Assembly: GCA_031265685.1 (NCBI GenBank)
Contig: JAISCI010000102.1
Span: 339 to 64,338 of the forward strand
Source of the DNA: Clostridiales bacterium
GTDB taxonomy: Bacteria; Bacillota; Clostridia; Lachnospirales; WRAX01
Reading direction: 5' to 3'
Length of the DNA: 64,000 nt
This document shows, in pieces, positions 11,108 to 37,983 of this stretch. A program made the translations under genes and the position numbers. The stretch's first letter is position 1, and each line of letters opens with the position of its first letter. The notes beneath the pieces are model-generated. The model saw only the letters and a program-made list of their open reading frames with translations. It made no database searches and was not told the DNA's origin.

Positions 11108-11216
11108 TGAGGCCACGGAGTGAAGCGCGCCTCACCCGCGTTTCCGTTTTGGCTCCCAGTTGCTCGAAAGATACCGCTCGTTGCCTTTGCGCCCTTCGCG
11201 CCATTGTGCAGCAAGG

Positions 11217-11799: not shown

Positions 11800-11831
11800 A
11801 TACAATAATATCGGCAAAAGGGGCGGTAAAT

Positions 11832-21645: not shown

Positions 21646-22119
21646 ATGCGTGATAAATTTTTCATGTCTCTCGCTTTGGCCGAGGCGCGGGCCGCCGCCG
21701 CCGCCGGCGAGACGCCCATTGGCTGCGCGATAGCCTTCCGGGGGCAGCTGATCGCCCTGGGGCGCAACACGCGCAACGCCGCGAAGAACGCCCTGGGACA
21801 CGCCGAGATAGCCGCTATCGGCGCGGCGTGCGCCTTTATGGGCGACTGGCGACTCGAGGGGTGCGAGCTGTTCGTGACGGCAGAGCCTTGCCCGATGTGC
21901 GCCGGGGCGATCATTCAGGCGCGGATACCGCGCGTCGTATTCGGCGCGGCGAATAAAAAAGCCGGCTGTGCCGGCTCCGTGATCAATATCCTCGACTGCC
22001 CCGGGTTTAACCACCGCTGCGCGGTCGCGGGCGGAGTGCTGGAGTCGGAGTGCTCCGCGCTGATGACGGGATTTTTCACTGACTTCCGCCGCCGAGCGAG
22101 CCTTCAAGCTCCGCGATGA
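21646..22119 (+). CDS. tadA: tRNA adenosine(34) deaminase
   Basis: 157 aa. HAEIAAI and PCPMCAGA zinc motifs. The 3' end overlaps the convergent gene 22076..23425 by 44 nt. Confidence 0.9.
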   Translation: MRDKFFMSLALAEARAAAAAGETPIGCAIAFRGQLIALGRNTRNAAKNALGHAEIAAIGAACAFMGDWRLEGCELFVTAEPCPMCAGAIIQARIPRVVFGAANKKAGCAGSVINILDCPGFNHRCAVAGGVLESECSALMTGFFTDFRRRASLQAPR

Positions 22120-23425
22120 GCGCGGTCAGCTCGTCCTCGGACATGTCTCTGGTCAGTTCATCCCAGTATTTGTCAGCGTCGCTGTCGCTCATATTATCCC
22201 AGTCCATGCCGCCGAGAGGGGGTATCGCGGCGGGTTCCGCAACCAAGCTGTCCGTCAGGCCGGACGCGGGATCCTCGCGGTACCGATCGGCGGAGAAATC
22301 CTCCGATAAGTCTTCCGCGCCGCCGGAGAGAGCGTCCGTCCAATCGCCGCCGAAGCTCTCGTCCGGCATGTCCGCCTGAAACCCGTCATAGACGCCGGGC
22401 GCTTCCGGCTCGGGCGGGGCGGCGGGTTCCGCTTCGGTATACAGCGCTTTTGGGTCATAATCATCATAATCGTCGTAACTCTGATAGCCGTAGTCGTCGA
22501 GCGGGGCTGTATCGTCCTCCGGGGCGGCGCTTATCGGCTCGTCCCAGTCGAGAAGAGGACGCCCGACGCCGGAGAGCGGCGGTTCCGCCGGAGGAGACGC
22601 CTCGAGCCGGGCGGATGGCGGCTCGTCCCAGTCGAGCGACAGGCCGGACACGGCGGCCACCGCTCTCGCCGCGGGTTTCGGCGTCGCGGGCGGGCGGCTC
22701 AGATCCAGATTACTCAAGCCGTCCGAATTATCCAGATTATACAGATCGCCGAACCGACCGCTCTCGCGGGACGCGCCGCGCGGAACTATATCGTCCTCCG
22801 GGGCGGCGCTTATCGGCTCGTCCCAGTCGAGAAGAGAACGCCCGACGCCGGAGAGCGGCGATTCCGCCGGAGGAGACGCCTCGAGCCGGGCGGATGGCGG
22901 CTCGTCCCAGTCGAGCGACAGACCGGACACGGCGGCCACCGCCCTCGCCGCGGGTTTCGGCGTCGCGGGCGGACGGCTCAGATCCAGATTATTCAAGCCG
23001 TCCGAATTATCCGGATTATACAGATCGCCGAACCGACCGCTCTCGCGGGCCGCGCCGCGCGAAACTTTCCGATGGCCAGTCTCATCCTTCTGCGCTTGGG
23101 AGCGCCCTGTGGAACCTTTCGCGCCGACGCGTTTCACCACGCCCTTGATCGTCAGCCCGCCCGTCGCGATCAGCATAAGGTTGAACGCCGGAAACGCGAA
23201 TACGGATATCGCGAAGATGGCGGGCAGCGCCGCCGCCGTCCGGATCGCGTTATCCGCGATGACAATCCCCGCCTGGCCCAGCGCCGAGCCGAGCGCCGGG
23301 ATTTGCAGCAGGTACGACAGCCCGTAAACCAGAGCCAGCAGCACGCCCGACGACACCGCCAATGTCAGCGACATCAGTATATATGAACCCAGTCCCATAC
23401 GTTTTATAGAAAATTTCCCCTTCAT
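22076..23425 (-). CDS. membrane protein with a long acidic, Trp-rich disordered tail containing a 93-aa tandem duplication
   Basis: 449 aa. The N-terminal ~100 aa are hydrophobic (2-3 TM helices). The tail carries LDWDEP x4 plus MDWDNM, GDWTD and KYWDEL. Confidence 0.7.
   Translation of the reverse strand: MKGKFSIKRMGLGSYILMSLTLAVSSGVLLALVYGLSYLLQIPALGSALGQAGIVIADNAIRTAAALPAIFAISVFAFPAFNLMLIATGGLTIKGVVKRVGAKGSTGRSQAQKDETGHRKVSRGAARESGRFGDLYNPDNSDGLNNLDLSRPPATPKPAARAVAAVSGLSLDWDEPPSARLEASPPAESPLSGVGRSLLDWDEPISAAPEDDIVPRGASRESGRFGDLYNLDNSDGLSNLDLSRPPATPKPAARAVAAVSGLSLDWDEPPSARLEASPPAEPPLSGVGRPLLDWDEPISAAPEDDTAPLDDYGYQSYDDYDDYDPKALYTEAEPAAPPEPEAPGVYDGFQADMPDESFGGDWTDALSGGAEDLSEDFSADRYREDPASGLTDSLVAEPAAIPPLGGMDWDNMSDSDADKYWDELTRDMSEDELTALIAELEGSLGGGSQ
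22510..23062. repeat. tandem duplication, 2 x 279 bp, inside the CDS
   Basis: The unit starting tatcgtcctccggggcggcgcttatcgg recurs exactly 279 nt (93 codons) later, at 22510 and 22789. The encoded copies differ at 7 of 93 residues. Confidence 0.9.
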
Positions 23426-23436: not shown

Positions 23437-23745
23437 CTAATCCAGATGCTCGATTATTTTTACCGCCAGAAAATAAAACGGGTACATAAGCAGCGCGGCG
23501 GCGGCGGAGACGAGCGTGAAGCCGACCGGAAACATAACCACGTTGATCAAGCCGCCGATTATCCCGTCAAAGGTCGAGTTGCCGATCAGCCCCTGCGTCG
23601 ATTCGCCGAGGGAACCGAGAGTGAGCTGCATAAGGCCGAAGAACACCCCCGCCGGAAACCCCGACATAACAAACACCTTGACATAGTCCTTGAAGCCGAG
23701 CTTGACGAACCCCAAGACCTTACGCATAGCCGCGCTCCCAGTCAT
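23437..23745 (-). CDS. small membrane protein (2-3 TM helices)
   Basis: 102 aa. The track ATG at 23745 abuts the repeat terminus (ggaattagtATG). An alternative start is Met7 (23727). The stop is 11 nt upstream of the next gene's start. Confidence 0.6.
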   Translation of the reverse strand: MTGSAAMRKVLGFVKLGFKDYVKVFVMSGFPAGVFFGLMQLTLGSLGESTQGLIGNSTFDGIIGGLINVVMFPVGFTLVSAAAALLMYPFYFLAVKIIEHLD

Positions 23746-23966: not shown

Positions 23967-24059
23967 ATACTAATCTCCGTCTAATTGAGAGAAAAGATTT
24001 TTCAAGACGATCCGCGCGGGCTTGAAAAATCTTTTCATACCTATAAACGGAGATTAGTA
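23967..24059. repeat. family-A palindromic element (CTCCGT terminus variant)
   Basis: atactaatctccgt / gaaaagatttttcaag / acgatccgcgcggg / cttgaaaaatcttttc / acggagattagta. Confidence 0.85.
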
Positions 24060-24070: not shown

Positions 24071-26140
24071 CTATAACCGGATCAGCTCCGCTATGCTCAT
24101 AGCAATACTATCCAATATATCATAAAACTTATCATTCAGATCGTAATACTTCCCGTCGGGCTTCGTCAGCGGGTCGTAGGATTCGATCGACTCGCGATCC
24201 TTCCGCGCGACTACGTAGCACGTCACGCCGTTTTCGCGCAACATATCGCGGATATCCTCGACCGAGCGGCCCGAGCGCGTCGGCACGTGCGGCGGCGCGT
24301 CGGTTATCAGTATAAATATCGCGCGTTCGCCCGGGGCGCTCTCCGACGAGCGCAGCAGACCGACCGCCGTCTCCAGCGCATCCAGCGACGATTCGGGGAT
24401 GTCGCCGCCGTATGTGCGCGGGATGTTTTTCACCTGTTTCTGGAACTTTTCCACGTCCGACGTGAAGCTGTATACCGAGGGCTTCTCCTTCTCGTACAAG
24501 TCGCCGAAACCGATCAGCCCCAGACTGGCGCCCGCTCCCTTGCCGCGCACTATCTCCGAGAACTCGATCGCGCGCTCCTTGACGCCGTTAATATATGTGT
24601 CCATGCTGCCCGTCGTGTCGATGACGAACACGATCCTGACGCTGCCGATGCCGGACGGTCGGCGCGGCGGCGCGGACGTCTTCGAGCGGTCAAACATCGC
24701 CCGTTCGCTCCGCCCGGTGGAAAGGTCGCGCACGTATACCTCGAACAGGTTGTCGGCGGAGATGGCGTAGGTTATCTCCAACTGCGTCGTGCCGCGCAGA
24801 CCGCCGAACTCGACGCTGCCGATATACTTGCGCTCGGCCTCGGCGCCCGCCGCCCACTGGTACACGTCCACGCTGACGGTCGTAGCCCCGGACATAGACG
24901 CGAAGTTGGAGTCCGAAAAACTGGACGGGATCTGGCTGCCCATCGGGATGATCGGTATCAGCGACTTCTCGCGCGTTGCGATATTGGTTACGGCCTCGGT
25001 GCCGAATATCTGCCGCGTTATCTGACCGACGGACACCTTGCGCTCGGGCAGGTGGATCAGGTAATTGTATATCGCCGCGCCCATCGCGACGCTCTTCGCC
25101 GGGTCGGTCGCGCGGTAGGGATCCTTCAAAAGCCCGGCCACCATACGTCTCACCATCGGGATGAGCGTCGATCCGCCGACGAGTATAACCTTCGATATAT
25201 CGTCCGCGTCGCGCCCCGAACGCTTAAGCGCTTCCGTGACAATCTCTCGGCTGCGGTCGATATACTTGCGTATCATGGACTCGAATTCCTCGCGGGTTAT
25301 CTCCAGCGAAAGGCTCTTCGGCTCGCCGCCCACGATGACGAGCGGGCTTACGCGCACCACGGCCTTGCTCGTTCCGGAAAGCTTCTTCTTCGTCTCCTCG
25401 GCGACTGCCTTTAGTTTCTGGAGGACGCGCCGCGCGTCGGCTCCGGGCAGATCGCTTAAGTCGATGCCTTCGGATTCCATGAACTTCGTCTTGAAGTGGC
25501 GTATCAGCTCGGAATCGAAATCGTCGCCGCCCAGTTCCATATCTCCGACGTCGGACAGTTCCTGGAAAATTTCCTGTCCGCTTTCGTCCTTCGATACTTT
25601 GAGCACGCACGCGTCGAACGTTCCGCCGCCAAGATCGTAAACGAGTAACGTCTGCGCCAGCCCCTGCCGGTAGCCATACTCGATCGCGGCGGCCAGCGGC
25701 TCGGAAAGCAGGTGGACGGTCGCGAACCCTGCCAGCAGCCCCGCCTGCCGCGTCGCGTATATCTGTCGGTCGTTGAAATACGCCGGGTGCGTTATAACTA
25801 CCTCGCCGAAGGCCTCGCCGGACGCTTCCTCGGCGGCGGCCTTGAGCCGGCGCAGTATGTCCGCGCTAACTTCCTCGGGGGTTTTGCGGACCGCTCCCAG
25901 TTCCAGCGCCTCGCCCGAACCCATCCGCCGCTTGACGGATATGACCGTCGATTCGGGGTAGATGATCGCGCCGGACTTCGCCTCCTCGCCGACGATAACG
26001 GATCCGTCCTCGGCGTAATGGACGACGGACGGAAGTATCTCCGAGCCGTCGATGGGAACGGCGGCGACGCCGTCCGTCCGGTCGCTGTAGATAACGGCGC
26101 ACGAGTTTGTCGTGCCCAGGTCGATGCCCAAGTATCCCAT
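24071..26140 (-). CDS. Hsp70-family ATPase fused to a C-terminal von Willebrand factor A domain
   Basis: I trimmed the track ORF to the ATG at 26140 (AGGAGA RBS), giving 689 aa. Motifs are LGIDLGTTNSCAV, VYDLGGGTFDACVL and ILVGGSTLIPMV. An SBD-beta is present (VSVDVYQW...LEITYAISADNLFEVYVRD) but no helical lid. The vWA domain has a MIDAS motif (VFVIDTTGSM ... ILITDAPPH). Confidence 0.85.
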   Translation of the reverse strand: MGYLGIDLGTTNSCAVIYSDRTDGVAAVPIDGSEILPSVVHYAEDGSVIVGEEAKSGAIIYPESTVISVKRRMGSGEALELGAVRKTPEEVSADILRRLKAAAEEASGEAFGEVVITHPAYFNDRQIYATRQAGLLAGFATVHLLSEPLAAAIEYGYRQGLAQTLLVYDLGGGTFDACVLKVSKDESGQEIFQELSDVGDMELGGDDFDSELIRHFKTKFMESEGIDLSDLPGADARRVLQKLKAVAEETKKKLSGTSKAVVRVSPLVIVGGEPKSLSLEITREEFESMIRKYIDRSREIVTEALKRSGRDADDISKVILVGGSTLIPMVRRMVAGLLKDPYRATDPAKSVAMGAAIYNYLIHLPERKVSVGQITRQIFGTEAVTNIATREKSLIPIIPMGSQIPSSFSDSNFASMSGATTVSVDVYQWAAGAEAERKYIGSVEFGGLRGTTQLEITYAISADNLFEVYVRDLSTGRSERAMFDRSKTSAPPRRPSGIGSVRIVFVIDTTGSMDTYINGVKERAIEFSEIVRGKGAGASLGLIGFGDLYEKEKPSVYSFTSDVEKFQKQVKNIPRTYGGDIPESSLDALETAVGLLRSSESAPGERAIFILITDAPPHVPTRSGRSVEDIRDMLRENGVTCYVVARKDRESIESYDPLTKPDGKYYDLNDKFYDILDSIAMSIAELIRL

Positions 26141-26167
26141 ACCAATTCTCCTGTCTGTTAAAGCTCC

Positions 26168-26338
26168 GCGCCAATCTCCATTTAAGAATATAGAAAAGAT
26201 TTTCAAGTCCGCGCCTGAAGCAGGGTAATTTTCGCGTGATGAATTTTGCGCGGCTTACGCAAAATTCCATCACGCGAAAATGCGATCGAAACTCGTCCAT
26301 ACAAAAATTTACTTCCGCCAATCTAACGGAGATCAGTA
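26168..26338. repeat. family-A-like composite element with a long family-B hairpin (26227..26280)
   Basis: ccaatctccattt / gaaaagattttcaag / ... aattttcgcgtgatgaattttgcg cggctta cgcaaaattccatcacgcgaaaa ... / acggagatcagtat. It fills the whole gap between two Hsp70 genes. Confidence 0.8.
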
Positions 26339-27934
26339 TTACACCCGCGTCTTCTTCCCCCGCTGGGGCGTGAAGTTTCGCTTATAGCCGCCGCCGGCGT
26401 CCTCAACCATGCCGGAGACTACCCCGCCCTCCTCGGCGGCGGACAGCGTGATTCGCAGCCTTGTCCCGCCGCTGGGGCGCGGAGGAAGTCCCGTTACCTC
26501 TATGTCGCCGATCAGCCGGCAGTCCTCCACGGGATCGTCCCGGTTGATCCGCTCCAGAACGCGCAGATCGAAACGCGTCATGTCTTCGGGGCGGCTTCCG
26601 GAGAGCGTGAACACGGCGTCTTTGCGCGCCAGAGCGTAAGGCGTGCCGCGCCGGATCAGCGTATAGAAAACCTTTTTCGCGCCGTTTGTCACCTCCAGCC
26701 CGATGTCGTGCGGAACGCTGCCGGAGAACGCAACGGCGCGGCGCTCGGCGGAGAACTCCCGCCCGGCGAGAAGCCCCATCTTCATCGCCGCGTAGTACGC
26801 CGCGCCGACCGATATGTCCAGCGCGGGGCGCTCGGACTGATATATCTTCGATTCGTCGCCGAACACGCCGTTCAACATATCCCGCACCCAGGGCGCGGCC
26901 GACGATCCGCCCTCCAACAGCACGCGGCTGATGTCCCCGGGAGCCAGAGCGCCCTTGTACGCGCCGCGCAGCGCCTTTTGCGTAAGCTGACGCGTCTTCT
27001 CGATAAACGCCGCCGCCAGTCCCTCATAGCGCTCGCGCGTCAGGTTCTCGATAAACGGCGGTATCATAAACGTGAACGGCACGCGGAACGACTTCGCGCC
27101 CGAGAGCCGTTCCTTCGCCTCGCGCGCGCGGATCTCCACTTCGGCGCGGTTTTCCGGGACGATCGATTCGCGGGTCTGGCCGGTTTTCGCCTCTATCCAG
27201 TCGTAGCACTGTTCGGTAAGAATAGCGTCGAGCGCGTCTCCGCCGTGGGCCGCGTCTCCGCCCTCGGATATGACCGTCAGCCGCGTCAGTCCCGGCGGTT
27301 CCTCCGTCACGCTGAAAACGGTTATATCGAGCGTGCCGCCGCCGAAGTCGAACACCAGCACGCGCTCGCCGTCCTCAAGCTCGCGCTTGAAATTCATAGC
27401 GAGCGCGGCGGCCTTCGGCTCCTCGATCAGGCAGATCAGGCCGCCGCCCAGCCCCGCCAGCTCGCAGGCGCGGATTGTCGCCTTCTTCGCGGCGTCGTCG
27501 AACCCATAAGGCACTGATACGACCAGTCCGGCTATCTCGGCTTTCGGGTTTATCGCTCGCGCGCGCGACGCCAGTTCTTCCAATATCTTCGCGGATATTT
27601 CCTCCGGCGCGTAGTCCTTGCCGCCCAGCCGGAACGTCTTGTCCGTGCCCATATACCGCTTCGCCGAACGCACCGTGGAATCGGGGTACAGCTTTATCGA
27701 GCGGTAGGCCTCCTCGCCGACGACCCACTCGCCGCCGTCGCGCCACTGCACAACGGAAGGCAGCGGTATCTTGCCGAACCCGTCCGAAACGTCGATGGTT
27801 TCGGGCGCGCCGGACGACGGCGAATAATAACTGACGACGGAGTTGGTCGTGCCTAAGTCTATGCCGAGCACGAACCAGTCCTCGGGCAGGGACCCGCGCC
27901 GGTCTATATCTTTTTTGCAATCTTCCCACTTCAT
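26339..27934 (-). CDS. Hsp70-family ATPase, lidless paralogue
   Basis: 531 aa. LGIDLGTTNSVVSYY, VFDFGGGTLDITVF, LLEGGSSAAPWV. It ends just after the beta-sandwich SBD. Confidence 0.85.
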   Translation of the reverse strand: MKWEDCKKDIDRRGSLPEDWFVLGIDLGTTNSVVSYYSPSSGAPETIDVSDGFGKIPLPSVVQWRDGGEWVVGEEAYRSIKLYPDSTVRSAKRYMGTDKTFRLGGKDYAPEEISAKILEELASRARAINPKAEIAGLVVSVPYGFDDAAKKATIRACELAGLGGGLICLIEEPKAAALAMNFKRELEDGERVLVFDFGGGTLDITVFSVTEEPPGLTRLTVISEGGDAAHGGDALDAILTEQCYDWIEAKTGQTRESIVPENRAEVEIRAREAKERLSGAKSFRVPFTFMIPPFIENLTRERYEGLAAAFIEKTRQLTQKALRGAYKGALAPGDISRVLLEGGSSAAPWVRDMLNGVFGDESKIYQSERPALDISVGAAYYAAMKMGLLAGREFSAERRAVAFSGSVPHDIGLEVTNGAKKVFYTLIRRGTPYALARKDAVFTLSGSRPEDMTRFDLRVLERINRDDPVEDCRLIGDIEVTGLPPRPSGGTRLRITLSAAEEGGVVSGMVEDAGGGYKRNFTPQRGKKTRV

Positions 27935-27935
27935 A

Positions 27936-29381
27936 TTATATTGTCTCCAGTTTTACTTTTGTCCGCGCCGACCCGCCGGCGGACGGAAACTGCTCGCCGA
28001 ACCCGACGTCCCGGACGGCGACGTCCAGCGTGTCGGCCGCCGAAAAAGCCAGCGACACGCCAACGACAGTCGTCCCCGCGGGACGTCTCGGAAGGCCGGT
28101 CAGCGTCAGATCAGTCAGTTTCACGCCGTCCCGCCCGCCCGAATAAATCTCGACGACCGGCGGCGCGTCTGTCGGCTCGGTCAGCAGAAATGTTCCTTCC
28201 GGGAATTTATCCCACCAATACGCCCCTTCCGGCGCTATCGGGAAGAACCGCGCCGCGTTCCCCGCGCGCACGCGCACGCCCACTCCGCGAGAAAGGCGGT
28301 TAACGTCTCGCAGTTTCGGAAAGGCGGGCGCCAGACCCAGCCCAGCCGCCGCTATCAGACACGCACCCTCGGCCAGAGCGACGGCGGGAACCTTCGGGCA
28401 GATAAGCTCCGCGCGCGGGAACGCCTTTGCCGCGGCCGCCCTCGCGAACGGGTACTCAAACCCGCCGCCCATAAGACATACCGCCGAGACCGCGGCGCGC
28501 TCCCCCGCCGCCGTGACCGCCGCTCTGATCCCCTCGGCGAAAGGTTTTGTCACGGCACGGATATCGGCGTCGCGGGCGGTCATCGCGAAAGGCGGGTACG
28601 CGAAAGATACGTAGAGTTTCACGTCCTTGGCGGACTGCCTCCCCAGAAGCAGCCGCCGGTGCGAACGGCAGAACCGCTCAAGCTGACGGACGTCCCGCGC
28701 GGAAGGCTCCCCGGCGGACTTCTCGTATAGTCCGGCCACAAAAGAGTCGGCCGCCCTGCCCAGAGCGTCCGCACCCAGATCGGGGTACGACACGCTCGAC
28801 AGGCAATCCACAAACCCGCCGCGCCTCTCGTACAGCCCGACGCGAAACGCCCCGGCTCCGAAGTCCGCGATAATGGTCGGCTGGCCATCACGCCCCGCGA
28901 GCAGCCGGGCGGCTGCGCATTCCCGAGCGTCGCGTATGTCCGCGAGCGCGGAGCCGTATCCGGCGTGGACGAACGCCGCGCGAAGATCCTCGGCGGCGGC
29001 GGCCGGCCAATCGGCGGGGGACGCCGCCACTATCGCCTCGACGCCGGCTTTCGGATCCGCGCCTTTCACGAAAGCGATCATGTCGCGGATATATTCGCCG
29101 GTTATCTCGCGTATCGGCGTAGGGCGGCCCCCGGCGCTTGCGTACTCTCCCTTGCCCAGTCGCTCGGGAAGACGCGTAAAAACCGCGCCGTCTTCTCCGC
29201 CGGAGAGCGCGTATTCCCCGAACACCCATTCGCCGTTCGCGTATTCGACCACCGTCGGAGAGGACGGCACACCGTACCCTCCGGATATGTCCACCGCGGC
29301 GGCCTCGCCGCGGACGGCGTCGTAATACGCCACGGCGGATGAATCCGCTCCGATGTCGATCCCGAGAACGAACCCGCTCAT
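27936..29381 (-). CDS. Hsp70/actin-fold protein with degenerate nucleotide-binding motifs
   Basis: 481 aa and colinear with the neighbouring Hsp70s, but GIDIGADSSAVAYY replaces GTTNS, ADFGAGAFRVGLY replaces DFGGGTFD, and CLMGGGFEYPFA replaces the adenosine motif. Confidence 0.7.
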   Translation of the reverse strand: MSGFVLGIDIGADSSAVAYYDAVRGEAAAVDISGGYGVPSSPTVVEYANGEWVFGEYALSGGEDGAVFTRLPERLGKGEYASAGGRPTPIREITGEYIRDMIAFVKGADPKAGVEAIVAASPADWPAAAAEDLRAAFVHAGYGSALADIRDARECAAARLLAGRDGQPTIIADFGAGAFRVGLYERRGGFVDCLSSVSYPDLGADALGRAADSFVAGLYEKSAGEPSARDVRQLERFCRSHRRLLLGRQSAKDVKLYVSFAYPPFAMTARDADIRAVTKPFAEGIRAAVTAAGERAAVSAVCLMGGGFEYPFARAAAAKAFPRAELICPKVPAVALAEGACLIAAAGLGLAPAFPKLRDVNRLSRGVGVRVRAGNAARFFPIAPEGAYWWDKFPEGTFLLTEPTDAPPVVEIYSGGRDGVKLTDLTLTGLPRRPAGTTVVGVSLAFSAADTLDVAVRDVGFGEQFPSAGGSARTKVKLETI

Positions 29382-30169
29382 CTTGCCGCTATGACGTTCG
29401 CGCGGACCAGCGCCTTATCGCCCTCGCGCCAGCCGCGCCCGCATACCGCGATTATCTCGCCGCGCTTTCGCTCCGGGTGCGGCTCGGCGGCCAGCGCCAC
29501 GTGCCAGCGTCCGGAGAACATCTCTCCCGGCTGCGGCTCGACTGGGAATATACCCGCTTCGGCCAGCAGTCTCTCGATTCCAAGCGACGTGCCCGCGCAA
29601 AGGCCCGCTAGCTTCCGGGCGGCGGGATCGCCGGACTGCGCCAGGCGCGGAACGGAGTAGTACATCATCTCGTCGAAGGTGGACACCTCGAACAGCAGCG
29701 CGTCTTTCAGGAAAGCCGCGCGGGATTTTTCCGCCGCCGCGAGTACGCGCGCTCGCTCGGCAGCGCGTTTCTCACGGATCAGCTTCGCGGAGCGCCCGTC
29801 CGGCGAGGTTATGGGCGAAACGCCTTCCAGCGTCTTTTCGGAAGCTTCGCGCGCACCCTCGGCGGACTGGCGCAGACTGTCCGCCTTGATGGCTATGGCC
29901 TCCGCGACGCCCCGCGCGATTGTTTCGGTCTCGTTGGTGAATTCGGCGGACGACACGAAAGCCGAAACGCCGTCGAGCAGTTCCGCGAAAGCCAGCGCCA
30001 TGTCGGCGGGCTTCGCGAGCAATCGCGCCGCGTCGGCGAGCGTCCGGCGATAGTCCGCGTCCCAGCGGGAGAAGGCGGATTCCCTCGCGCGGAACCTGCG
30101 GGCTTCCTCCGCCGCGCGCCGGTTCTGGTAATGGAGTTTTAAGCGCTCATGTTTTTCTCTGGATGGCAT
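29378..30169 (-). CDS. GrpE-like nucleotide exchange factor
   Basis: I trimmed the track ORF to the ATG at 30169 (GAGGGA RBS), giving 263 aa. A long helical N-terminal part is followed by a C-terminus LLAEAGIFPVEPQPGEMFSGRWHVALAAE...GEIIAVCGRGWREGDKALVRANVIAAR, which follows the GrpE beta-domain pattern (G-x-x-x-I-x-x-x-G-x-x-FDP-x-x-H-x-A...G-Y...R-x-A-x-V). Confidence 0.6.
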   Translation of the reverse strand: MPSREKHERLKLHYQNRRAAEEARRFRARESAFSRWDADYRRTLADAARLLAKPADMALAFAELLDGVSAFVSSAEFTNETETIARGVAEAIAIKADSLRQSAEGAREASEKTLEGVSPITSPDGRSAKLIREKRAAERARVLAAAEKSRAAFLKDALLFEVSTFDEMMYYSVPRLAQSGDPAARKLAGLCAGTSLGIERLLAEAGIFPVEPQPGEMFSGRWHVALAAEPHPERKRGEIIAVCGRGWREGDKALVRANVIAAR

Positions 30170-30177
30170 TTTATCCC

Positions 30178-31860
30178 TCAATACAGATCGTCCACAGTCA
30201 GTTCCGTGACCAGCCCGCCCGCCGACAGCGATTCCGCCATGACGCGCAGCATGTTGTCCTGCCCGACACTGAACACGACGCGCACGCGCTCTTGCCCCTT
30301 CGGTCCCTGCGGTATCCCGCGGAGGCTCGTGCCCGAGAGCCGCTTCATGCCGTCGCGGTAGACGTAATCCGGCGAGCCGTCCGTCGCGGGCGCGGTGTTT
30401 TCGTATACGACTATCGCCATGCTGGACAGGTTGTCGAAACCGGTCGTCAGCGTCTCGGGGCATTCCACCGTGAGGCCCTCGGGCGGGATGTCCATGCCGG
30501 AATCCACTATTTTAAGGAATCGTCGCCCATGAAGCTCCAGCCCCAGCGGGTGAATCGTTCTCTCTTTGACCTTGACGATGGGTTCCGCTATGTCGGGCAT
30601 CATGATCATTTCGCAATAAACGGCCGCCCCGCGCGAGATAGAGAGGGCGGGGCTGACCTTGGACTTATACGGCGCCCTGCCGAACTTCTCCTCGACGCGA
30701 TTGGCCGCGAGCGGTATCGCCGAGCTTCCCCCGACGAGGAACACCTCGTCGATGTCCCCGGCGGAAAGCCCTGCCGCCTCGAGACATTTATCAACGCATG
30801 CCAGCGTGGAATCCACCATGTCCGACAGAGTCTTTCCCTCAAACTTCCCAAACGAAACGTCGTCCTGACCCAGGCGGTTGACGCGCGCGTGCGTCTCGAG
30901 CTGTTCGCGGGTTATTTCCATATTTATGCTGACGACGATTGGTTCCTGCAGGAACGGGCTGAGCGTGACCTTGGCGCTCTTCGCCTGACTGAGCCGTTCC
31001 TTGGCGACGTTCGCGGCCTGGCGCAGACGCGCCTGAGCCGTCTTTTTCTGACGCCTCGACACGCCGTCGTCCACTTGCTCGTCGAAGATGTCTATTTCGC
31101 CGTTTGTAAGGTTCTTGAACTCTTCGTAAATAATATCCATGACCAGCGCGTCCGCGTCGTCGCCGCCCAGCCGGTTGTCGCCGTAGGTGGACGCTACCGA
31201 GATGACCGGCTCGTCGCCGGGTTTCGCGTCTATATCGAGTATGCAGGCGTCGAACGTTCCGCCGCCAAAGTCGTATATGAGGACCTTCTTGGCGGAGGAT
31301 TCGCCGATGGCGTAGCTGATCGCGGCGGCGGCGGGTTCAAGCCGAAGATACACGCTGTCCTCGTCGAATCCGGCGAGCACGGCGGCCTCTTTCGTCACGC
31401 GCTTCTGCTTGTCCGTGGAATTGGCGGGCACGGTTATAACGCAGCCCGAAAACTCGCCCGGTATGCCCAGTTCTTCCCGCGCGTACTCGTCGGCTTTGCG
31501 CTTCAGGCAGCCGAGTATCTCCCCGGCGATCTGCGCCGGCGTGAAGGCGTGTTCCTCGCCGCCCGCCTCGACTACGATTTTTTCGTCCGAACCCAGCAGT
31601 CGCTTCACCGAAAGCACCGTGGACGCCGGGAATATCGCGGCGGCTTCCTTCGCTTCCGCGCCGAACACTCGGGAGAGCTTGCCCGGCTCGTCCGGGTCCG
31701 GCTCGAACTGAACCGCCGTCGGGAAGATATTGGCGCCGTCGATAGGGATAGTCTGCGCCTCCCCATCCTTAAAGTTAAATATGCTGACGACGGAGTTGGT
31801 TGTGCCGAAGTCCACGCCGAGATACAGCCCCCGCGCCGTGTCGAGACCGATTGTTCCCAT
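30178..31860 (-). CDS. Hsp70-family ATPase, lidless paralogue
   Basis: 560 aa. LGVDFGTTNSVVSIF, IYDFGGGTFDACIL, FLVGGSSAIPLA. It ends just after the beta-sandwich SBD. Confidence 0.85.
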   Translation of the reverse strand: MGTIGLDTARGLYLGVDFGTTNSVVSIFNFKDGEAQTIPIDGANIFPTAVQFEPDPDEPGKLSRVFGAEAKEAAAIFPASTVLSVKRLLGSDEKIVVEAGGEEHAFTPAQIAGEILGCLKRKADEYAREELGIPGEFSGCVITVPANSTDKQKRVTKEAAVLAGFDEDSVYLRLEPAAAAISYAIGESSAKKVLIYDFGGGTFDACILDIDAKPGDEPVISVASTYGDNRLGGDDADALVMDIIYEEFKNLTNGEIDIFDEQVDDGVSRRQKKTAQARLRQAANVAKERLSQAKSAKVTLSPFLQEPIVVSINMEITREQLETHARVNRLGQDDVSFGKFEGKTLSDMVDSTLACVDKCLEAAGLSAGDIDEVFLVGGSSAIPLAANRVEEKFGRAPYKSKVSPALSISRGAAVYCEMIMMPDIAEPIVKVKERTIHPLGLELHGRRFLKIVDSGMDIPPEGLTVECPETLTTGFDNLSSMAIVVYENTAPATDGSPDYVYRDGMKRLSGTSLRGIPQGPKGQERVRVVFSVGQDNMLRVMAESLSAGGLVTELTVDDLY

Positions 31861-31872
31861 AATTTATCCTCC

Positions 31873-34800
31873 TTAGAGTAGTATCGCCCTGGCCCGCGGG
31901 ACAGGCGAGAGAGCCTTTTCGGCGGAGCGTTCGGCAAGCTCCTCCCGCCCGCGCGCGAGATGAACCGCGGCGTCGTTGACGGCCTGCCAGCCGCCCTCGC
32001 CAAGCCCAAGCTCCGCCTTCGCGACGGCAAGCGTCCGGCTGGCGGTCTCGGTTTCCCCGCCCGCACCGCGCTCGACGAACCGATACCTGATCCTGTCGCC
32101 GTGGAACGCGCGGATATTCGCGGCATACACGCCGAAGCGGACGTATTTCGCCGGGACGCCGCGTTCGGGGCCGCCCGCCGAATACACCAGGGAGACGTTC
32201 CTCCCGCGCCGCCCTCTGTGCTCAAGCGGCTGGTTTTCCTCTATATACGGCGTCCGCGCGGATTTGTCTTTGATCGTTTCCAGTGCCGGCGGGATAACGC
32301 CCAGTTTTTCGGCAGTGGCCGCCGCGCGCGCGACGACCTCGCCGGACGGCTTGACACCTCTGGCGTATACCGCGCAGAGAGCGAAAACGGTCGTATCTTC
32401 CGGATCCGCCCCGGACAGGCAAAGGCCCTCCAGCGCCGCTACCGCTTCCAGCGCGGGTTCCAGACCGTCAAGCTCAATCCCCCTGCACAGCGCCGCCGCG
32501 TATGCCCGGACATGAGCCGATTTCGCCGCCCGCGGCGCTTCCCGCGCGAACGCCGCCTGAGCCGCCCCGGACATATCACGCGTCAGCGCCGCCGAATCCA
32601 GTATCTCCCTGTCGAGCGCGGCGGAGCCGCCGCCAGCGCGGATCGCGGCCTCGGCCAGCCGAGCCATGTCCGCGACACTGCCCGCGCTGCCGGCGGCGGC
32701 TTTCGCCACGCCCGCGTCATACCATCCGCCCAGCGTCAGCTCGCGGCAGACCGGCCCTATCACGGCGCGATCCGCCGCCGACCCCGACCCGGCGACAGCT
32801 CTCGCCGCCGCGAACTTCGTCTCGTCGTCAATCGCCGGAGATTTGGACGCGAGCAGCTTCGCGAGGCGCTCCATGTCGCCCGCCGCCGCCAGCGCCGCGG
32901 CTATAGGCGCCGCGAACACCGCCGGAACGCTTCTCGCGTCCGTCCCGGCGTATCTCTCCGCCGCTTCCGCCGTCAGTCCCGTTTTGGCGAGCAAGCCCGC
33001 CGCCGCCGCCGAAACCGCCCGCAACAGTTCGGGCGAGAGCGAGGGTTCTCGCAGAGCTTTCGTCAGCATCGACAGTTTATTGGCGGCCGATATGCCGCGC
33101 GTCCGGGGATCGTCGTCTATGATCCCCTTGGAGAGCGCCGCGAGCAGTCTCGGCGACGGGTTGCCGTCCAGAAAAAACCGCGTGTACAGACGTATCCCAG
33201 CGTTCTCGATCATGCGGACAGCCGTGAATCCGCCGCCGGCGGCCGCGCCCGCGCCGTCCAGAAACGCCGCCGAAAACCCGTGCCCCGCGGCTTCCGCGAC
33301 ACATGACGTGCCCGAGAAGGAGTAGTTTTCGGGAGCCGCCATCAGCGGGTCAAATACGCGAACCTGCCGAGCGGACTGATCCGCCGGCGACAGGCGGAAG
33401 CGGAACAGGTTGTCGCGCACAAGCCGTTCGGCCTTCTTATACAGCGGCGACGACCTGTCCGCGACGTCGAGGTAGAACGCGTACGCGCTCAGGAAGTATC
33501 GTCCCGTTTCGCCCGCCGTCAGCGACCGCTCGGCGAATTCCGCGATCCGGCGCGTCAGCGGGCCGACCGCCTGCTGGTTCTCGGGGCGGGTCAGCATCAG
33601 ATGGAACACGAAAGCGTCGTCCGCTCCCTCGGCGTACTCGCGCAGGGCGGCTGGCGGTACGTCCGGAACGGCCCGCCGCCGCGCCGACGTTATGACGGCG
33701 GCCGAAAGACCGGGTATGCTCAGGCCGGCGTTCAGCGCCGTGACATAATACCGGTAGGCCCGCTCGGAATAATCCGCCCGCGTGAGCGCCGACGAGCACA
33801 GCGCCGCCAGCAGCGACCGCTCCGGATACCGCCGGTAGACGCTGTCGGCGGCGGCCGGAGTCATGCGCGCCGCTATCGCCGCGCCATACATTCGGACGGC
33901 CCTCGAAATGTCCCGCCCCTTGGCCGCGCCCCACGCGACGGCTCCGAGAAAGAGCGAACGTCCCGGCGCGCCCGATATGTCCGTGTCCGGATCGGCGGCG
34001 CAAAGACAGTCGCACGCGCAATCAAGGAGCCGCCTCGAACGCTCCCCCAGCGCGAACGCTTCCGCGAGCGCCGCGAAGCCGCGAGCCGCGCCAAACGCCG
34101 TGAACGCCGCCATTCCCGCGTATGACGATTCGGACGAGCGAGCGAGCCGCCCCGCCTCGCGCCGCGCGGTGAACATCGAACCGCCGTCGGCCGCCGCGCG
34201 GCACCGCAGATATACGTACCGCGCCCATTCCTCCGGCGCCGTCTTTCTAAGCCGCCGGTCGCGCTTCGCGGCGGATTTGAGCTGCAGCCGGGCGCTCTCA
34301 AGTAGCCCGGCGGATATGTCGCGTTCTATCGTGTCGAGCGTGTCGGGCGGGATCGGGCTTTTGAGCTTAATCGACACGGCGACGCGCGTTACCCCAGCCG
34401 GGGTGATCAGATCGACGGCAGCTTCGGCCTCGGTCGTCTTACGCCCAAGTTCCGGCGCGACGGTGAACGGTATGCCCGCCTTGTCCGCGATGAGGTATCG
34501 CCGCGCCGAGAACCTCGTGAGCCGGTCCCTCGGCGCCGCCTCGACGAGCATGTCGCGGCGCGTCGAGTTGACGACGATTATCGAGCCGGATTCGCCGGGC
34601 GCGTATGTCTCGCGGTCCGTCCGCGCGGAGAGCGACCGGCGCCGCGCCGCCATGATCGTAACGCCCGAGCCGTCCGACAGATTGACGCGGGCGGCGGCGA
34701 AGCGCGATTTAAGCAGCCCGGGATATATGATGAAGCGTTTTTCGGCAAAGCCGTCTTTCGAGAAATCCGACGGCGAGACGACCGGTTCCAGCAACTTGAG

Positions 34801-35412
34801 CCACGGCGCGTCCGCGGTCAGCTTATCCGACGCGACGCCCCAGCCATTGAGACGCAACGGAATAACCCCAGTCGCCGAATCGGTCTCACCGGGATTGAAC
34901 TCGAAACGCAGCAGCCGTTCCGTGGGCGCGACGGCGGCGCGTTCCTTAAACCCCGACGTCACAAGGAAGCTGTCCAGTCCCTCGGCGCCGCCCCGCCGGA
35001 ACCGCTCGTACAGATCCATATGCCTGAAACCAATCTTTTGCAGCCACTCGCGGAACGTTTCCGCGCCGAACACCCTGGCAGCCCCGGCAAAGTCCGACCG
35101 GGCGTAATCGGCGAACTCGCCGACGGAACGGCAGCGCGTACCAGTCAAGACCGCGGAAGGGTCCCCCAAGACGCGCACGCGGCCCTCGCCGCCGCTCGTG
35201 ATCAGCGACACCGAAGCGGTCTCCGCCCCGGAACCGCCCCGATACGTCACGGCGACGCGGCAGTCTCCGTCGAACTCCGCCGGGGAGACGGTTATCCCGG
35301 GCGAATCGGCGGCGATCCCGCCAAACAACCGCCCTGTTCCGGCGTTTGTGATAGAAAAGAAGGCGGTGTCGCCCGCCCCTGACAGCCTGACTTCGCGGAG
35401 AGACAGCCGCAA
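31873..35412 (-). CDS. 1179-aa protein of unrecognised family (three N-terminal beta-rich modules plus ~800 aa Ala-rich helical region)
   Basis: Continuous ORF with coding-like composition. The track start is TTG at 35412. The frame stays open 19 more codons upstream (TTEAEYERVIDVLEDGKPE) with no canonical start codon. No HPD/J-domain, Walker or other motif is recognisable. Confidence 0.7.
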   Translation of the reverse strand: MRLSLREVRLSGAGDTAFFSITNAGTGRLFGGIAADSPGITVSPAEFDGDCRVAVTYRGGSGAETASVSLITSGGEGRVRVLGDPSAVLTGTRCRSVGEFADYARSDFAGAARVFGAETFREWLQKIGFRHMDLYERFRRGGAEGLDSFLVTSGFKERAAVAPTERLLRFEFNPGETDSATGVIPLRLNGWGVASDKLTADAPWLKLLEPVVSPSDFSKDGFAEKRFIIYPGLLKSRFAAARVNLSDGSGVTIMAARRRSLSARTDRETYAPGESGSIIVVNSTRRDMLVEAAPRDRLTRFSARRYLIADKAGIPFTVAPELGRKTTEAEAAVDLITPAGVTRVAVSIKLKSPIPPDTLDTIERDISAGLLESARLQLKSAAKRDRRLRKTAPEEWARYVYLRCRAAADGGSMFTARREAGRLARSSESSYAGMAAFTAFGAARGFAALAEAFALGERSRRLLDCACDCLCAADPDTDISGAPGRSLFLGAVAWGAAKGRDISRAVRMYGAAIAARMTPAAADSVYRRYPERSLLAALCSSALTRADYSERAYRYYVTALNAGLSIPGLSAAVITSARRRAVPDVPPAALREYAEGADDAFVFHLMLTRPENQQAVGPLTRRIAEFAERSLTAGETGRYFLSAYAFYLDVADRSSPLYKKAERLVRDNLFRFRLSPADQSARQVRVFDPLMAAPENYSFSGTSCVAEAAGHGFSAAFLDGAGAAAGGGFTAVRMIENAGIRLYTRFFLDGNPSPRLLAALSKGIIDDDPRTRGISAANKLSMLTKALREPSLSPELLRAVSAAAAGLLAKTGLTAEAAERYAGTDARSVPAVFAAPIAAALAAAGDMERLAKLLASKSPAIDDETKFAAARAVAGSGSAADRAVIGPVCRELTLGGWYDAGVAKAAAGSAGSVADMARLAEAAIRAGGGSAALDREILDSAALTRDMSGAAQAAFAREAPRAAKSAHVRAYAAALCRGIELDGLEPALEAVAALEGLCLSGADPEDTTVFALCAVYARGVKPSGEVVARAAATAEKLGVIPPALETIKDKSARTPYIEENQPLEHRGRRGRNVSLVYSAGGPERGVPAKYVRFGVYAANIRAFHGDRIRYRFVERGAGGETETASRTLAVAKAELGLGEGGWQAVNDAAVHLARGREELAERSAEKALSPVPRARAILL

Positions 35413-35512: not shown

Positions 35513-37174
35513 TCAGCGAGGGCCTATGAATTCACGCAGTATGGAGTTTGCGGGCACCTCCGACGACGGCACGTTAAGGAAGCTGTCGAGAAACTTAATC
35601 AGGCGCTTCGCTTCCATATACTCGGGCACTTTCGGGCTTATGCCGAAAAGCAGCGGCTCGGCGTACTGTTTCAGCGCGCACAGCTCGTATACGAGCGCCG
35701 AATTGAAGATGGCGTCCGCGCCCTCTTCGTATGGGAACACGTGTTTCTGCTCGCCGCGCCCGACTGACGGCCATATGCGGATCGTCGTCAACGCGCCGAA
35801 GTTCCGCGACTGATGGTCGCGGACGATCCGGCGGATCAGACGCGCGTCGGTCGTCGCGATGCGGTTGTGATCGTCGATGTTCAGCTGTGTAAATACGCTT
35901 ATGAATATTTTGAATTTATCGTTGTCGGATATACCCACGGCCAGCCGGTCATTCAGCGCGTGCAACCCCTCGACTATGAGGACGTCGTTCTTGCCCATCG
36001 CGAACGGCAGCGCCTTCGGACTCCTCATGCCGGTCGTGAAGTCGAACTCCGGCACTTCGACCGTATCCCCCGCCAGCAGCGCGCGGATATCGGCGTTAAC
36101 GCGATCCATCTCTATGGCGTCGGGACTCTCATAGTCCGGCTCGCCGAACTCGTCTACGGGCAGCGTTTCCCGCGAGACAAAATAATCGTCGAGCGAGATG
36201 ATGTGCGCGTGATAACCCGAGACGCGCAGCTGTATCGCGAGCCGCTTCGCGAACGTCGTCTTGCCCGACGACGACGGACCCGATACGAGCGCGAGCCGCC
36301 GCCCCCGCGACACGATCATGTCCGCGATCTGGGCGACGCGCTTCTCATGCAGCGCTTCGTTAGTCTGGATGAACTCGCCGGCGCGCCCGGCGCAGATAAT
36401 GTCGTTCAGCGCGCCGACGCTGCCCGCCGAAAGGATGTCGCCCCAGCGCTTGGCCTCGCGGAACACGACGGCCACTTTCGTGGCCACGGCGGGTTCGGAA
36501 GGCTCCGACGGGTCGGAAGCCATCGGGAAACGCAGCAGCAACCCCCCGGCCGGCGTCCGCGACAGCCCGAACACCGTTACGGCGCCCGTCGAGCGCGCCA
36601 TCGGGCCGTAGAAATAATCATAGTACCCATTGAGCCTATAGAAATTAACTCCGCTGGTACGGCGGTATTTCAGCATATCCACTCTGTCCCACGCGCCCAT
36701 CTCCTCGCAAAGGCGCACGCCCTCGTCGAGCGTCATGGAAAGCTTATCGATTACAATATCGTCGTCCACGATCTCGCGCATCCGAGACTCGATCCGCGCG
36801 AGAAGCGCCGCCGTAACGCGGATCTGATCGCCCTCGGCCGTGAGCAGTTCGCACACATAGTTATTGTTTATAGAATGCCGTATGACTACCCGCGCCGTAC
36901 CGCCCAGCGCGTCGCGAGCGGCGCATATCATGACGAACGACGCCGTCCGTTGATACACTAGAAACCCGGCGCGGCTCGTAATGTCCAAGAACTCGGCCTC
37001 GCAGTCGCGGATAAGCCGGGCGTTTAATTCCAACAGTTCATTGTTGACACGTGCCACCAGTATCGGAAAGCTCAATAGTTCCGGATACGCCCGCGCGATT
37101 TCGTACAGCCTGATACCGTAATCGGCTTTTATCTCGTCGCCGCCGGACACCCGGATGTTGATCATTTCCTGCAT
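35513..37174 (-). CDS. uridine/nucleoside kinase-family P-loop protein, long form with N-terminal extension
   Basis: I trimmed the track ORF to the ATG at 37174, giving 553 aa. GPSSSGKTTFAKRL P-loop, ISLDDYF, and a PRK/Udk-like C-terminal half. Confidence 0.75.
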   Translation of the reverse strand: MQEMINIRVSGGDEIKADYGIRLYEIARAYPELLSFPILVARVNNELLELNARLIRDCEAEFLDITSRAGFLVYQRTASFVMICAARDALGGTARVVIRHSINNNYVCELLTAEGDQIRVTAALLARIESRMREIVDDDIVIDKLSMTLDEGVRLCEEMGAWDRVDMLKYRRTSGVNFYRLNGYYDYFYGPMARSTGAVTVFGLSRTPAGGLLLRFPMASDPSEPSEPAVATKVAVVFREAKRWGDILSAGSVGALNDIICAGRAGEFIQTNEALHEKRVAQIADMIVSRGRRLALVSGPSSSGKTTFAKRLAIQLRVSGYHAHIISLDDYFVSRETLPVDEFGEPDYESPDAIEMDRVNADIRALLAGDTVEVPEFDFTTGMRSPKALPFAMGKNDVLIVEGLHALNDRLAVGISDNDKFKIFISVFTQLNIDDHNRIATTDARLIRRIVRDHQSRNFGALTTIRIWPSVGRGEQKHVFPYEEGADAIFNSALVYELCALKQYAEPLLFGISPKVPEYMEAKRLIKFLDSFLNVPSSEVPANSILREFIGPR

Positions 37175-37185
37175 TTGGAGCCCTC

Positions 37186-37983
37186 CTATACCAGTAATTG
37201 GGGATCTGAAATCATAAAAACCTGACCGTCCGCTGCGGACTCGATAAACTCGGCGTCCGGAACCAGCTCGCGGAGTCTTGCCGCCAGCGGCGGGATCACA
37301 ATGTTTTCCGTGGCGTAGTGCGTCGCGTCGATCAGGCATAGCCCCATGTCGATAGCGTCCTGCGCCTCGTGGTATCGGACGTCGCCGGTTATGAATACGT
37401 CCGCGCCCTGAGAGAGCGCCCGCCGGAACAGTTTGCGGTCGGAACCCGAACCCGTAACCACGGCGGCGCGTTTTACAATCCGCCTCGGATCGCCCGTGAA
37501 GCGCAACGCGTCCGTCCCGAGCGCCCGTGAGGCCGCGCCGGCGAAGCCCCGGAGCGGCAGCGGTTCCGGAATGTTCCCCACGCGCCCCATCGCGGGCGGA
37601 TCGCCGAGCGAGTCGATAGCCGTAAGCCCCAGAAGCCGGGCAAGCGTGTCGTTTGTGCCGCCATCCGCCGCGTCGAGATTCGTGTGCATGGCATAGACCG
37701 CTATACCGTTCTCGATCAGAAACAGCAGTTTATCACCGAGGGCGTCACAGTCGGCGACGCGCTGTATCGGTTTGAATATCGGCGGGTGGTGCGTCACGAT
37801 AAGACCCGCGCCGACCGCCGCCGCCTCGCGGCAGACCTCCCGCGTCGCGTCCAGCGCCACGAGTACGCGCCCGGCGTCCGCGCCCGCGCGTCCGACGATA
37901 AGACCCGAATTATCCCATTCGGCGGATAGCTCCGGAGGAGCTATCGTCTCGGCGGCGCGGATTATGTCCGCCGCTTTCGGCAT
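37186..37983 (-). CDS. Nif3-like dinuclear metal centre protein (YqfO family)
   Basis: 265 aa. WDNSGLIVG, LIVTHHPPIF, VYAMHTNLD, FITGDVRYHEA. Confidence 0.9.
   Translation of the reverse strand: MPKAADIIRAAETIAPPELSAEWDNSGLIVGRAGADAGRVLVALDATREVCREAAAVGAGLIVTHHPPIFKPIQRVADCDALGDKLLFLIENGIAVYAMHTNLDAADGGTNDTLARLLGLTAIDSLGDPPAMGRVGNIPEPLPLRGFAGAASRALGTDALRFTGDPRRIVKRAAVVTGSGSDRKLFRRALSQGADVFITGDVRYHEAQDAIDMGLCLIDATHYATENIVIPPLAARLRELVPDAEFIESAADGQVFMISDPQLLV

Follow-up and report, generated by a model that had tools for sequence, protein, structure and literature searches.

A stretch of 64,000 nucleotides (nt) from a Clostridiales bacterium (GenBank assembly GCA_031265685.1, contig JAISCI010000102.1, positions 339 to 64,338; hereafter the window) carries a cassette of six minus-strand genes at window positions 24071-35412. 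This cassette is a real, strictly conserved operon of Clostridia. It is built from known families and constitutes an Hsp70/GrpE system of unprecedented composition, one that lacks J-protein logic. From the first gene to the last, the cassette encodes a large protein of the DUF5717 family, an Hsp70 (Hsp70-A), a GrpE-like protein, a predicted pseudo-Hsp70 of the DUF5716 family, a second Hsp70 (Hsp70-B), and an Hsp70 fused to a vWA domain (Hsp70-vWA). The general model for these proteins is a dedicated, J-independent Hsp70 remodelling complex that is organized on a scaffold and inherited chromosomally in a group of Clostridia, and it is given about an even chance of being right.

The six genes are all co-directional, and the table of open reading frames (ORFs) exactly reproduces the coordinates and the near-zero spacing reported in a first-pass annotation of this DNA. 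The DUF5717 gene (31873-35412) has a TTG start and encodes 1179 amino acids (aa). It is followed by the genes for Hsp70-A (30178-31860, 560 aa), the GrpE-like protein (29378-30169, 263 aa, or 267 aa with a 4-nt overlap in an independent gene call), DUF5716 (27936-29381, 481 aa), Hsp70-B (26339-27934, 531 aa), and Hsp70-vWA (24071-26140, 689 aa counted from ATG). The successive gaps measure 12, 8, -4 (an overlap), 1, and 198 nt. All six window proteins are predicted to be soluble and to lack transmembrane segments. An independent Logan assembly contains the same 14,858 nt at 100% identity and with the same gene calls, and the fused 1179-aa ORF is therefore not an assembly artefact.

Conservation of gene order had been set beforehand as a test of the cassette. 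The order DUF5717_N, DUF5717, Hsp70-A, GrpE-like, DUF5716, Hsp70-B, Hsp70-vWA is identical in the window and in every related locus that is long enough. These neighbourhoods, all of them Clostridia loci, were collected by gene-position look-ups and by a genome scan. The scan pattern was taken from a 16-sequence subset, the alignment of 63 sequences having no stretch that was conserved enough, and the resulting loci are biased toward Defluviitaleaceae-like sequences. Known carriers within the Clostridia are metagenome-assembled genomes (MAGs) of Defluviitaleaceae, Eubacteriales, and “Clostridiales”, many of which come from termite gut, and Epulopiscium. Anaeropeptidivorans aminofermentans (OW711693.1) is a cultured carrier with a complete chromosome.

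Most relatives of the window cassette carry two accessory genes. The one directly upstream encodes a protein of about 440 aa with 2-3 transmembrane segments and a long coiled coil (16 loci), and the one directly downstream encodes a TPR protein of about 387 aa, found in all seven of the loci that reach that far. Both families are absent from the window when it is searched with family hidden Markov models, and other loci with a fused DUF5717 gene also lack the upstream membrane coiled-coil gene. Since the membrane coiled-coil and TPR genes are both missing, the window represents the minimal six-gene core.

Additional genes interrupt the cassette in three termite-gut MAGs, in which the cassette order is nevertheless kept. 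The inserts are co-directional and lie in loci L011 (6469-7562, 11462-12183, and 13798-14705), L015 (11801-13207, 14879-16459, and 18341-19328), and L016 (12875-14576). They encode a ParE toxin, a PIN protein, a SAM methyltransferase, two MBL hydrolases, and an S41 peptidase. Considered as possible accessory components, these genes were rejected as unrelated cargo; the toxin-antitoxin genes among them are lineage-specific and not conserved members of the cassette.

The cassette proteins fall into two rate classes, with the ATPases 60-73% identical across lineages and the partner proteins 24-31%. Median identity to the window proteins is 66.5% for Hsp70-A, 60% for Hsp70-B, and 72.5% for Hsp70-vWA, compared to 31% for DUF5716, 28.5% for the GrpE-like protein, 26% for DUF5717_N, and 24% for the DUF5717 C-terminal module. 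Among about 127 orthologues of Hsp70-vWA, the median pairwise identity is 79% (74% for the window protein), and more than 120 Hsp70-vWA clusters are 71-77% identical. By comparison, no other protein exceeds 55% identity to the MetH of the window organism, and the nearest names are in Oscillospirales, which indicates that this organism is poorly sampled. The cassette ATPases are thus more conserved than a core enzyme of the same organism, and purifying selection on them is very strong. The partner proteins, in turn, have such low identity that a recent transfer of the whole cassette is disfavoured.

Three of the four Hsp70 paralogues match the Pfam HSP70 profile (Hsp70-A at 4e-69, Hsp70-B at 2e-54, and Hsp70-vWA at 5e-88). 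All three matches stop at position 480-500 of the 599 positions of the profile, with that of Hsp70-A spanning 2-488. Hsp70-B also weakly matches the Pfam profile DUF5716_C, and there are weak matches to MreB/FtsA profiles among the Hsp70s in Pfam and NCBIfam. Scores for the equivalogs of the housekeeping chaperones are low. The best score against the NCBIfam DnaK equivalog NF001413 is 332.8 bits, far below the cut-off of 648, and that against TIGR02350 is 323.9 bits compared to a cut-off of 822.55; scores for the HscA equivalog likewise fall far below its cut-offs. Hsp70-vWA aligns only to residues 5-468 of Geobacillus DnaK, and the cassette Hsp70s are about 36% identical to DnaK.

The paralogues were aligned to a reference sequence of Escherichia coli DnaK that agreed at 21 known landmark positions. 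In this alignment, residues D8, K70, E171, D194, T199, and D201 (E. coli DnaK numbering) are invariant in Hsp70-A, Hsp70-B, Hsp70-vWA, and all of their orthologues; for Hsp70-A, this invariance extends across 19 orthologues, and for Hsp70-B across 13. R167, N170, and T173, which contact the J-domain, are kept in none of the four paralogues, and the hydrophobic interdomain linker VLLL is replaced in all four. After the beta-sandwich of the substrate-binding domain (SBD-beta), the chain either ends within 10-17 residues or runs directly into the vWA domain, so that there is neither a helical lid nor a tail. These residues and chain ends bear out the earlier description of four paralogues that all stop after the beta-sandwich, without lid or tail, three of them with intact phosphate and adenosine motifs; the catalytic residues are lost in the DUF5716 protein. 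Hsp70-A, Hsp70-B, and Hsp70-vWA are accordingly predicted to be catalytically competent, lid-less Hsp70s.

The Hsp70 part of Hsp70-vWA covers aa 1 to about 490 and is joined by a conserved linker to the vWA domain at aa ~516-689 (nt 24074-24595). This domain is recognized by the Pfam profiles VWA_4, VWA, and VWA_2, with the VWA match at aa 525-675. Its motifs DTTGS (DxTxS), GGDIPES, and LITDAPPH, the last of which includes the LITD aspartate, are invariant across 128 Hsp70-vWA orthologues. The domain thus keeps its residues of the metal ion-dependent adhesion site (MIDAS) type.

The 481-aa protein is the degenerate member of the set. It matches Pfam DUF5716_C at 8e-16 (58.2 bits compared to a gathering cut-off of 34.7), while its match to HSP70 is weak. 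Residues K70, T11/T12, and T199 are lost, and D201 is replaced by an arginine that is itself invariant in 16 orthologues. DUF5716 is thus most readily understood as a catalytically dead, lid-less pseudo-Hsp70. Its closest paralogue is Hsp70-B (3e-18), with which it has a C-terminal DLGFGE motif in common, and the two appear to be sister paralogues.

The 263-aa protein scores 27.2 bits against the Pfam GrpE profile, just above the cut-off of 25.8, and the match is confined to its C-terminal part (aa 198-260). An orthologue in a related locus, L028, reaches 43.9 bits over profile positions 15-162. Against the NCBIfam GrpE equivalog, the window protein scores 18.6 compared to a cut-off of 266. 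Its C-terminal region aligns to E. coli GrpE over the signature of the four-helix bundle and the beta-domain. It is a divergent member of the GrpE family and a putative nucleotide-exchange factor. GrpE-like orthologues are about 620 aa long with a long N-terminal extension, while the window copy is a short form.

The 1179-aa protein had been described as an orphan. It belongs instead to the DUF5717 family, as it matches Pfam DUF5717_N (3.7e-16, 58.6 bits) and DUF5717 (9e-10, 38.6 bits), both above the cut-off of 25. A word-index search with this protein, which has an alanine-rich composition, found only the protein itself; an exhaustive HMMER search was needed, and it recovered 303 representative relatives. 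In most of these, the family is split between two genes, one of about 390 aa corresponding to residues 1-320 and one of about 900 aa corresponding to residues ~390-1179. The fused form seen in the window occurs in a few relatives. The window protein is a lineage-specific fusion of the DUF5717_N and DUF5717 genes.

AlphaFold2 (AF2) models suggest the architecture of both halves of DUF5717. In the model of the N-module (aa 1-340, nt 34393-35412, minus strand; pLDDT 92.2), three ASH/Ig-like beta-sandwiches are combined with a small helical bundle. That of the C-module (aa 390-1179, nt 31873-34245, minus strand; pLDDT 91.8) shows a TPR/HEAT-like alpha-solenoid with two beta-sandwiches, one of which interrupts the solenoid while the second lies at its end. 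In Foldseek searches, the C-module matches only generic TPR/HEAT scaffolds (transportin-3, Ctr9, Ski3, Naa15, and IFT-A) at a TM-score of about 0.2. The N-module most closely matches chains from the ciliary central-pair apparatus and, in CEP192, the SPD-2 domain. We read these matches as placing the sandwiches in the ASH/PapD type, a likeness at the level of the fold (TM-score about 0.3). The models fit a soluble platform for protein-protein interaction rather than an enzyme or an obvious client. Of the two roles that had been suggested for the giant protein, scaffold and client, the ASH/Ig and solenoid architecture makes that of scaffold the likelier and that of client less likely.

A J-protein was looked for at several levels. 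The HPD tripeptide is absent from all six cassette proteins, and no cassette family alignment contains a conserved HPD column. A J-domain query found no match among ORFs of at least 90 aa in the 64-kb window and 27 related loci, in agreement with the initial observation that no HPD or J-domain lies in or beside the cluster. Pfam searches with representatives of the accessory families returned TPR profiles or nothing.

Compared to the canonical DnaK-DnaJ-GrpE system, the cassette has the same catalytic residues in its nucleotide-binding domains (NBDs), a beta-sandwich SBD, and a GrpE-family factor alongside. However, the canonical system has a single Hsp70, while the cassette has three predicted active paralogues and one predicted dead one. 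The cassette also lacks the lid and tail, the J-protein, the J-contact residues, and the VLLL linker, and its Hsp70s score below the DnaK equivalog thresholds, while the vWA fusion and the putative DUF5717 scaffold are extras that the canonical system does not have. Because the tests of lid, J-protein, J-interface, and equivalog score all fail, the cassette is not a DnaK-DnaJ-GrpE system, and the early view of a dedicated multi-Hsp70 set that is distinct from housekeeping DnaK holds.

Among published descriptions, the HSP70-GrpE theme of the GAP1-N2 (DO-GTPase) conflict systems comes closest. As described by Kaur et al. (2020, eLife 9:e52696, PMC7159879), this theme links an HSP70, a GrpE, and a second HSP70 in firmicutes and actinobacteria to an FNIII-repeat protein that carries a DnaJ or TPR fusion. 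The cassette resembles it in its linked HSP70, GrpE, and atypical HSP70, in its occurrence in firmicutes, and possibly in its beta-sandwich-repeat protein joined to TPR. Moreover, vWA domains occur in the wider class around GAP1-N2 systems, and the cassette has one as well. However, there is no GTPase or GAP1 in the cassette proteins or their immediate neighbours, no DnaJ fusion, and no effector, and the context is a housekeeping one. The second HSP70 of the GAP1-N2 theme lacks the SBD, while all cassette paralogues keep SBD-beta. The FNIII protein and DUF5717, with its Ig-like sandwiches (ASH/PapD-type matches) and TPR-like solenoid in AF2 models, may be alike in architecture. Another point of comparison is CnuD of the CoCoNuT systems, which comprises Hsp70-like NBD/SBD proteins with degenerate ATPase motifs alongside McrBC GTPase/nuclease components (PMC11090510). 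The cassette differs in having three paralogues with intact motifs and no McrB, McrC, or HEPN components.

The cassette is not described in the literature found under DUF5716/DUF5717, Hsp70 with vWA, bacterial Hsp70s that are lid-less or J-independent, and Hsp70-like systems against phage, and DUF5716 and DUF5717 were not mentioned in a relevant context. This agrees with the first-pass annotation, which knew of no characterized system of this composition.

In pairs of an AAA+ MoxR ATPase and a vWA protein, and in BchI/BchD-type pairs, the ATPase is coupled with an adaptor whose vWA/MIDAS domain binds one specific client (RavA-ViaA, CbbQ-CbbO, and NorQ-NorD). These pairs are specialized for maturation or remodelling rather than for general folding, and they often have TPR partners, for example in the Bat operon. 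Such AAA+-vWA maturation chaperones may be considered the nearest functional analogy to the cassette, with which the MoxR-vWA ternary systems have a vWA domain with MIDAS residues in common. The ATPase of those systems is AAA+, while here it is an Hsp70 with the ASKHA fold, and Pfam finds no AAA+ domain in the cassette. In addition, and unlike in the MoxR-vWA pairs, the vWA domain of the cassette is fused to the SBD of an Hsp70, and there is a putative need for a GrpE-type exchange factor.

In eukaryotes, non-hydrolysing or divergent Hsp70s are known as stable partners or exchange factors of active Hsp70s, as in the Ssz1-Zuo1 complex RAC and in Hsp110-Hsp70. The sister pair of DUF5716 and Hsp70-B may be an analogue of these partnerships, although here the pairing is inferred, the origins are independent, and there is no Zuo1-like J-protein.

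The cassette lies among housekeeping genes, and these differ between four lineages. In the window, the flanks encode NIF3, TrmK, a uridine-kinase-like protein, MurJ, MetH, a MacB-type ABC transporter, and a DivIVA-like protein, the gene for which lies 2.5 kb downstream of the cassette. In related loci, the flanks are an AddAB-type helicase-nuclease, LeuRS, SMC, and RlmL (L028), ThrC and an aminotransferase (L030), or nusA-infB and spoIIAA-AB-sigF (L031). IMG/VR contains no relative of DUF5717. No orthologue of Hsp70-vWA was found on the plasmids of PLSDB, where the best matches are DnaK proteins of at most 37% identity. PADLOC (PADLOC-DB v2) reported nothing significant for the six proteins; two of the Hsp70s match PDC-M61B at E = 1e-3 to 3e-4, and the other four proteins match nothing. 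With respect to expression, the 180 nt upstream of the first cassette gene were scanned in 18 loci (L002-L031). In 12 of them, there is a TAWAAT hexamer, often with an extended TG, at about -45 to -78 relative to the start codon, compared to a mean of 4.8 (maximum 10) in shuffled controls, which weakly hints at vegetative expression of the sigma-A type.

These features can be assembled into a mechanism. DUF5717 would serve as the platform for the four Hsp70-fold proteins and a dimer of the GrpE-like protein, and tethering to this scaffold would replace the targeting and activating role that is normal to J-proteins. The dead DUF5716 would pair with its sister Hsp70-B and regulate it or promote exchange, much as Ssz1 or Hsp110 do, while the GrpE-like protein would reset the ADP-bound state. 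Through its MIDAS site, the vWA domain could capture an acidic residue on a specific client, on the scaffold, or on a partner, as in MoxR-vWA and BchI/BchD systems. The lid-less Hsp70s, which are expected to bind peptides with fast on and off rates, would then remodel or assemble the captured client through cycles of ATP. In most lineages, the protein with transmembrane segments and a coiled coil probably ties the complex to the membrane, and the TPR partner may localize or extend it. A more specific form of the model is a little less probable, falling somewhat short of an even chance. It states that the cassette is an unrecognized, lineage-specific machine of Clostridia that cycles without any J-domain protein, and thus a new mode of Hsp70 activation and targeting that serves one dedicated client or structure.

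Several points weigh against a J-independent remodelling complex. These Hsp70s could still be served by a J-protein whose gene lies elsewhere in the genome. With the VLLL linker and the SBD arch residues lost, the SBD may have given up allosteric peptide binding altogether. The core mechanism does not require the membrane and TPR partners, since the window lacks both. The search patterns bias the taxonomic survey. An arms race, as expected in a conflict scenario, is also consistent with how fast DUF5717, DUF5716, and the GrpE-like protein evolve. Finally, interaction, ATPase activity, and expression, as well as everything else beyond composition and conservation, are predictions.

The first-pass annotation had proposed two kinds of role, a phage or conflict sensor-effector system and the assembly of a large structure. 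The evidence favours a cellular role in assembly or remodelling over anti-phage defence, with a single dedicated client or structure put forward only as a proposal. A sensor of conflict or of phage would be an NTPase-vWA-TPR system in which DUF5717 senses an invader protein and oligomerization of the Hsp70s provides the thresholding or effector step. Its combination of NTPase, vWA, TPR, and beta-sandwich repeats is indeed reminiscent of the conflict systems in Kaur et al. (2020; PMC7159879), and the 24-31% identity of DUF5717, DUF5716, and the GrpE-like protein would suit it. The toxin-antitoxin genes (ParE and PIN) found inside the cassette in some termite-gut MAGs point in the same direction, but these are lineage-specific cargo, and the ATPases are conserved like core genes. 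Moreover, no cassette protein contains a GTPase, nuclease, protease, TIR, pore-forming, or other effector domain, the only PADLOC match is one of 1e-3 to a candidate model, and the cassette sits between housekeeping flanks rather than in a defence island and was found neither in IMG/VR nor on plasmids. A conflict or anti-phage sensor is therefore judged unlikely.

Assembly could also take a cytoskeleton-like form, in which the actin-fold Hsp70s and their dead paralogue form a stable hetero-oligomer on the ASH/TPR scaffold, anchored to the membrane by the coiled-coil protein in most lineages, and act in cell architecture or division rather than in the folding of clients. The NBD of Hsp70 indeed has the actin-like ASKHA fold, with weak MreB/FtsA profile matches, and relatives carry a membrane coiled-coil partner, while the window has its DivIVA-like gene 2.5 kb downstream. 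In addition, ASH domains of the ciliary central-pair apparatus are the best matches of the DUF5717 N-module, and the central-pair entry 7n6g (“C1 of central pair”) lists an HSP70A chain, 7n6g_6K. However, the ASH likeness is one of fold only (TM-score about 0.3), and neither the window nor the other fused-DUF5717 loci have the membrane partner. A GrpE-type factor and strictly conserved hydrolysis residues speak for a cycling chaperone rather than a polymer, and we know of no polymerization interface for Hsp70 NBDs. This form of assembly is considered quite improbable, more so than a conflict sensor. The least probable explanation by far, to which hardly any weight is given, is ordinary proteostasis, with the cassette providing extra or replacement copies of DnaK and GrpE for general folding. 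The best database matches are DnaK and HscA, and the source annotation reads “molecular chaperone DnaK” or “Hsp70 family protein”, but the scores lie far below the DnaK and HscA equivalog cut-offs at about 36% identity to DnaK. Furthermore, lid, tail, J-interface, and linker are lacking, one paralogue is predicted to be catalytically dead, and the genes always occur together with DUF5717, DUF5716, and a vWA domain.

Two repeat elements accompany the cassette. The 198-nt spacer between Hsp70-B and Hsp70-vWA (26141-26338) contains a hairpin repeat of REP/MITE type. It had been called entirely palindromic, but it consists of a central hairpin of about 27 bp and complementary outer arms (fold -65.8 kcal/mol, z = -4.45). 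The spacer is one copy of a dispersed repeat with the core TTTTCGCGTGATGGAATTTTGCG, of which two diverged copies lie at 10155-10177 and 62927-62949. Since Hsp70-B and Hsp70-vWA are only 0-70 nt apart in most relatives, the repeat in the spacer is an insertion. A different element, a 39-nt inverted repeat (23968-24059, 82% complementary, 14-nt loop), directly follows the stop codon of Hsp70-vWA. It probably marks the end of the operon, either as a terminator-like structure or as a repeat element.

Two co-directional genes lie about 325 nt downstream of the cassette. The first encodes a 102-aa membrane protein (23437-23745, minus strand), and the second a 449-aa protein (22076-23425, minus strand) with two transmembrane segments, two near-identical acidic repeats of about 96 aa that bear an LDWDEP motif, and no Pfam match. 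Considered as stand-ins for the membrane partner that the window lacks, these two membrane proteins showed no homology to it and were not counted among the parts of the cassette. On the other side, a minus-strand gene at 35513-37339 encodes a 608-aa protein (553 aa in an independent gene call) with a uridine-kinase (PRK) domain only at residues 352-546 and an unassigned N-terminal extension of about 350 aa. Farther away, two adjacent plus-strand genes encode proteins with homocysteine S-methyltransferase domains (12272-13975 and 14554-16935), one of them fused to MTHFR and the other of MetH type with pterin-binding and B12-binding domains. The G+C content is 0.47-0.55 at 10001-12000 and 58001-64000, compared to about 0.62 elsewhere in the window, and a tRNA-Pro/Met/Gln cluster (59333-59586) lies within the second of these regions. 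In the related locus L023, an Hsp70 gene at 15623-17314 (563 aa) lies 4.5 kb downstream of a truncated DUF5717 gene, and the rest of the cassette is not visible there. It was considered as a canonical DnaK that would prove co-occurrence with the cassette and rejected, as its product is HscC-like, with R167 retained and a short helical lid.

As currently understood, Hsp70s need J-domain proteins, which provide targeting and ATPase activation, and the lid, which holds the substrate. The cassette has no J-protein, lid, J-contact surface, or allosteric linker, yet very strong selection maintains it in many Clostridia. Should it prove to be a functional machine, it would represent an alternative, scaffold-based Hsp70 logic. 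It would also provide a natural bacterial pair of an Hsp70 enzyme and a pseudo-enzyme, and an Hsp70 analogue of the AAA+-vWA maturation chaperones. With this cassette, the Pfam families DUF5716 and DUF5717 gain a concrete context and testable hypotheses.

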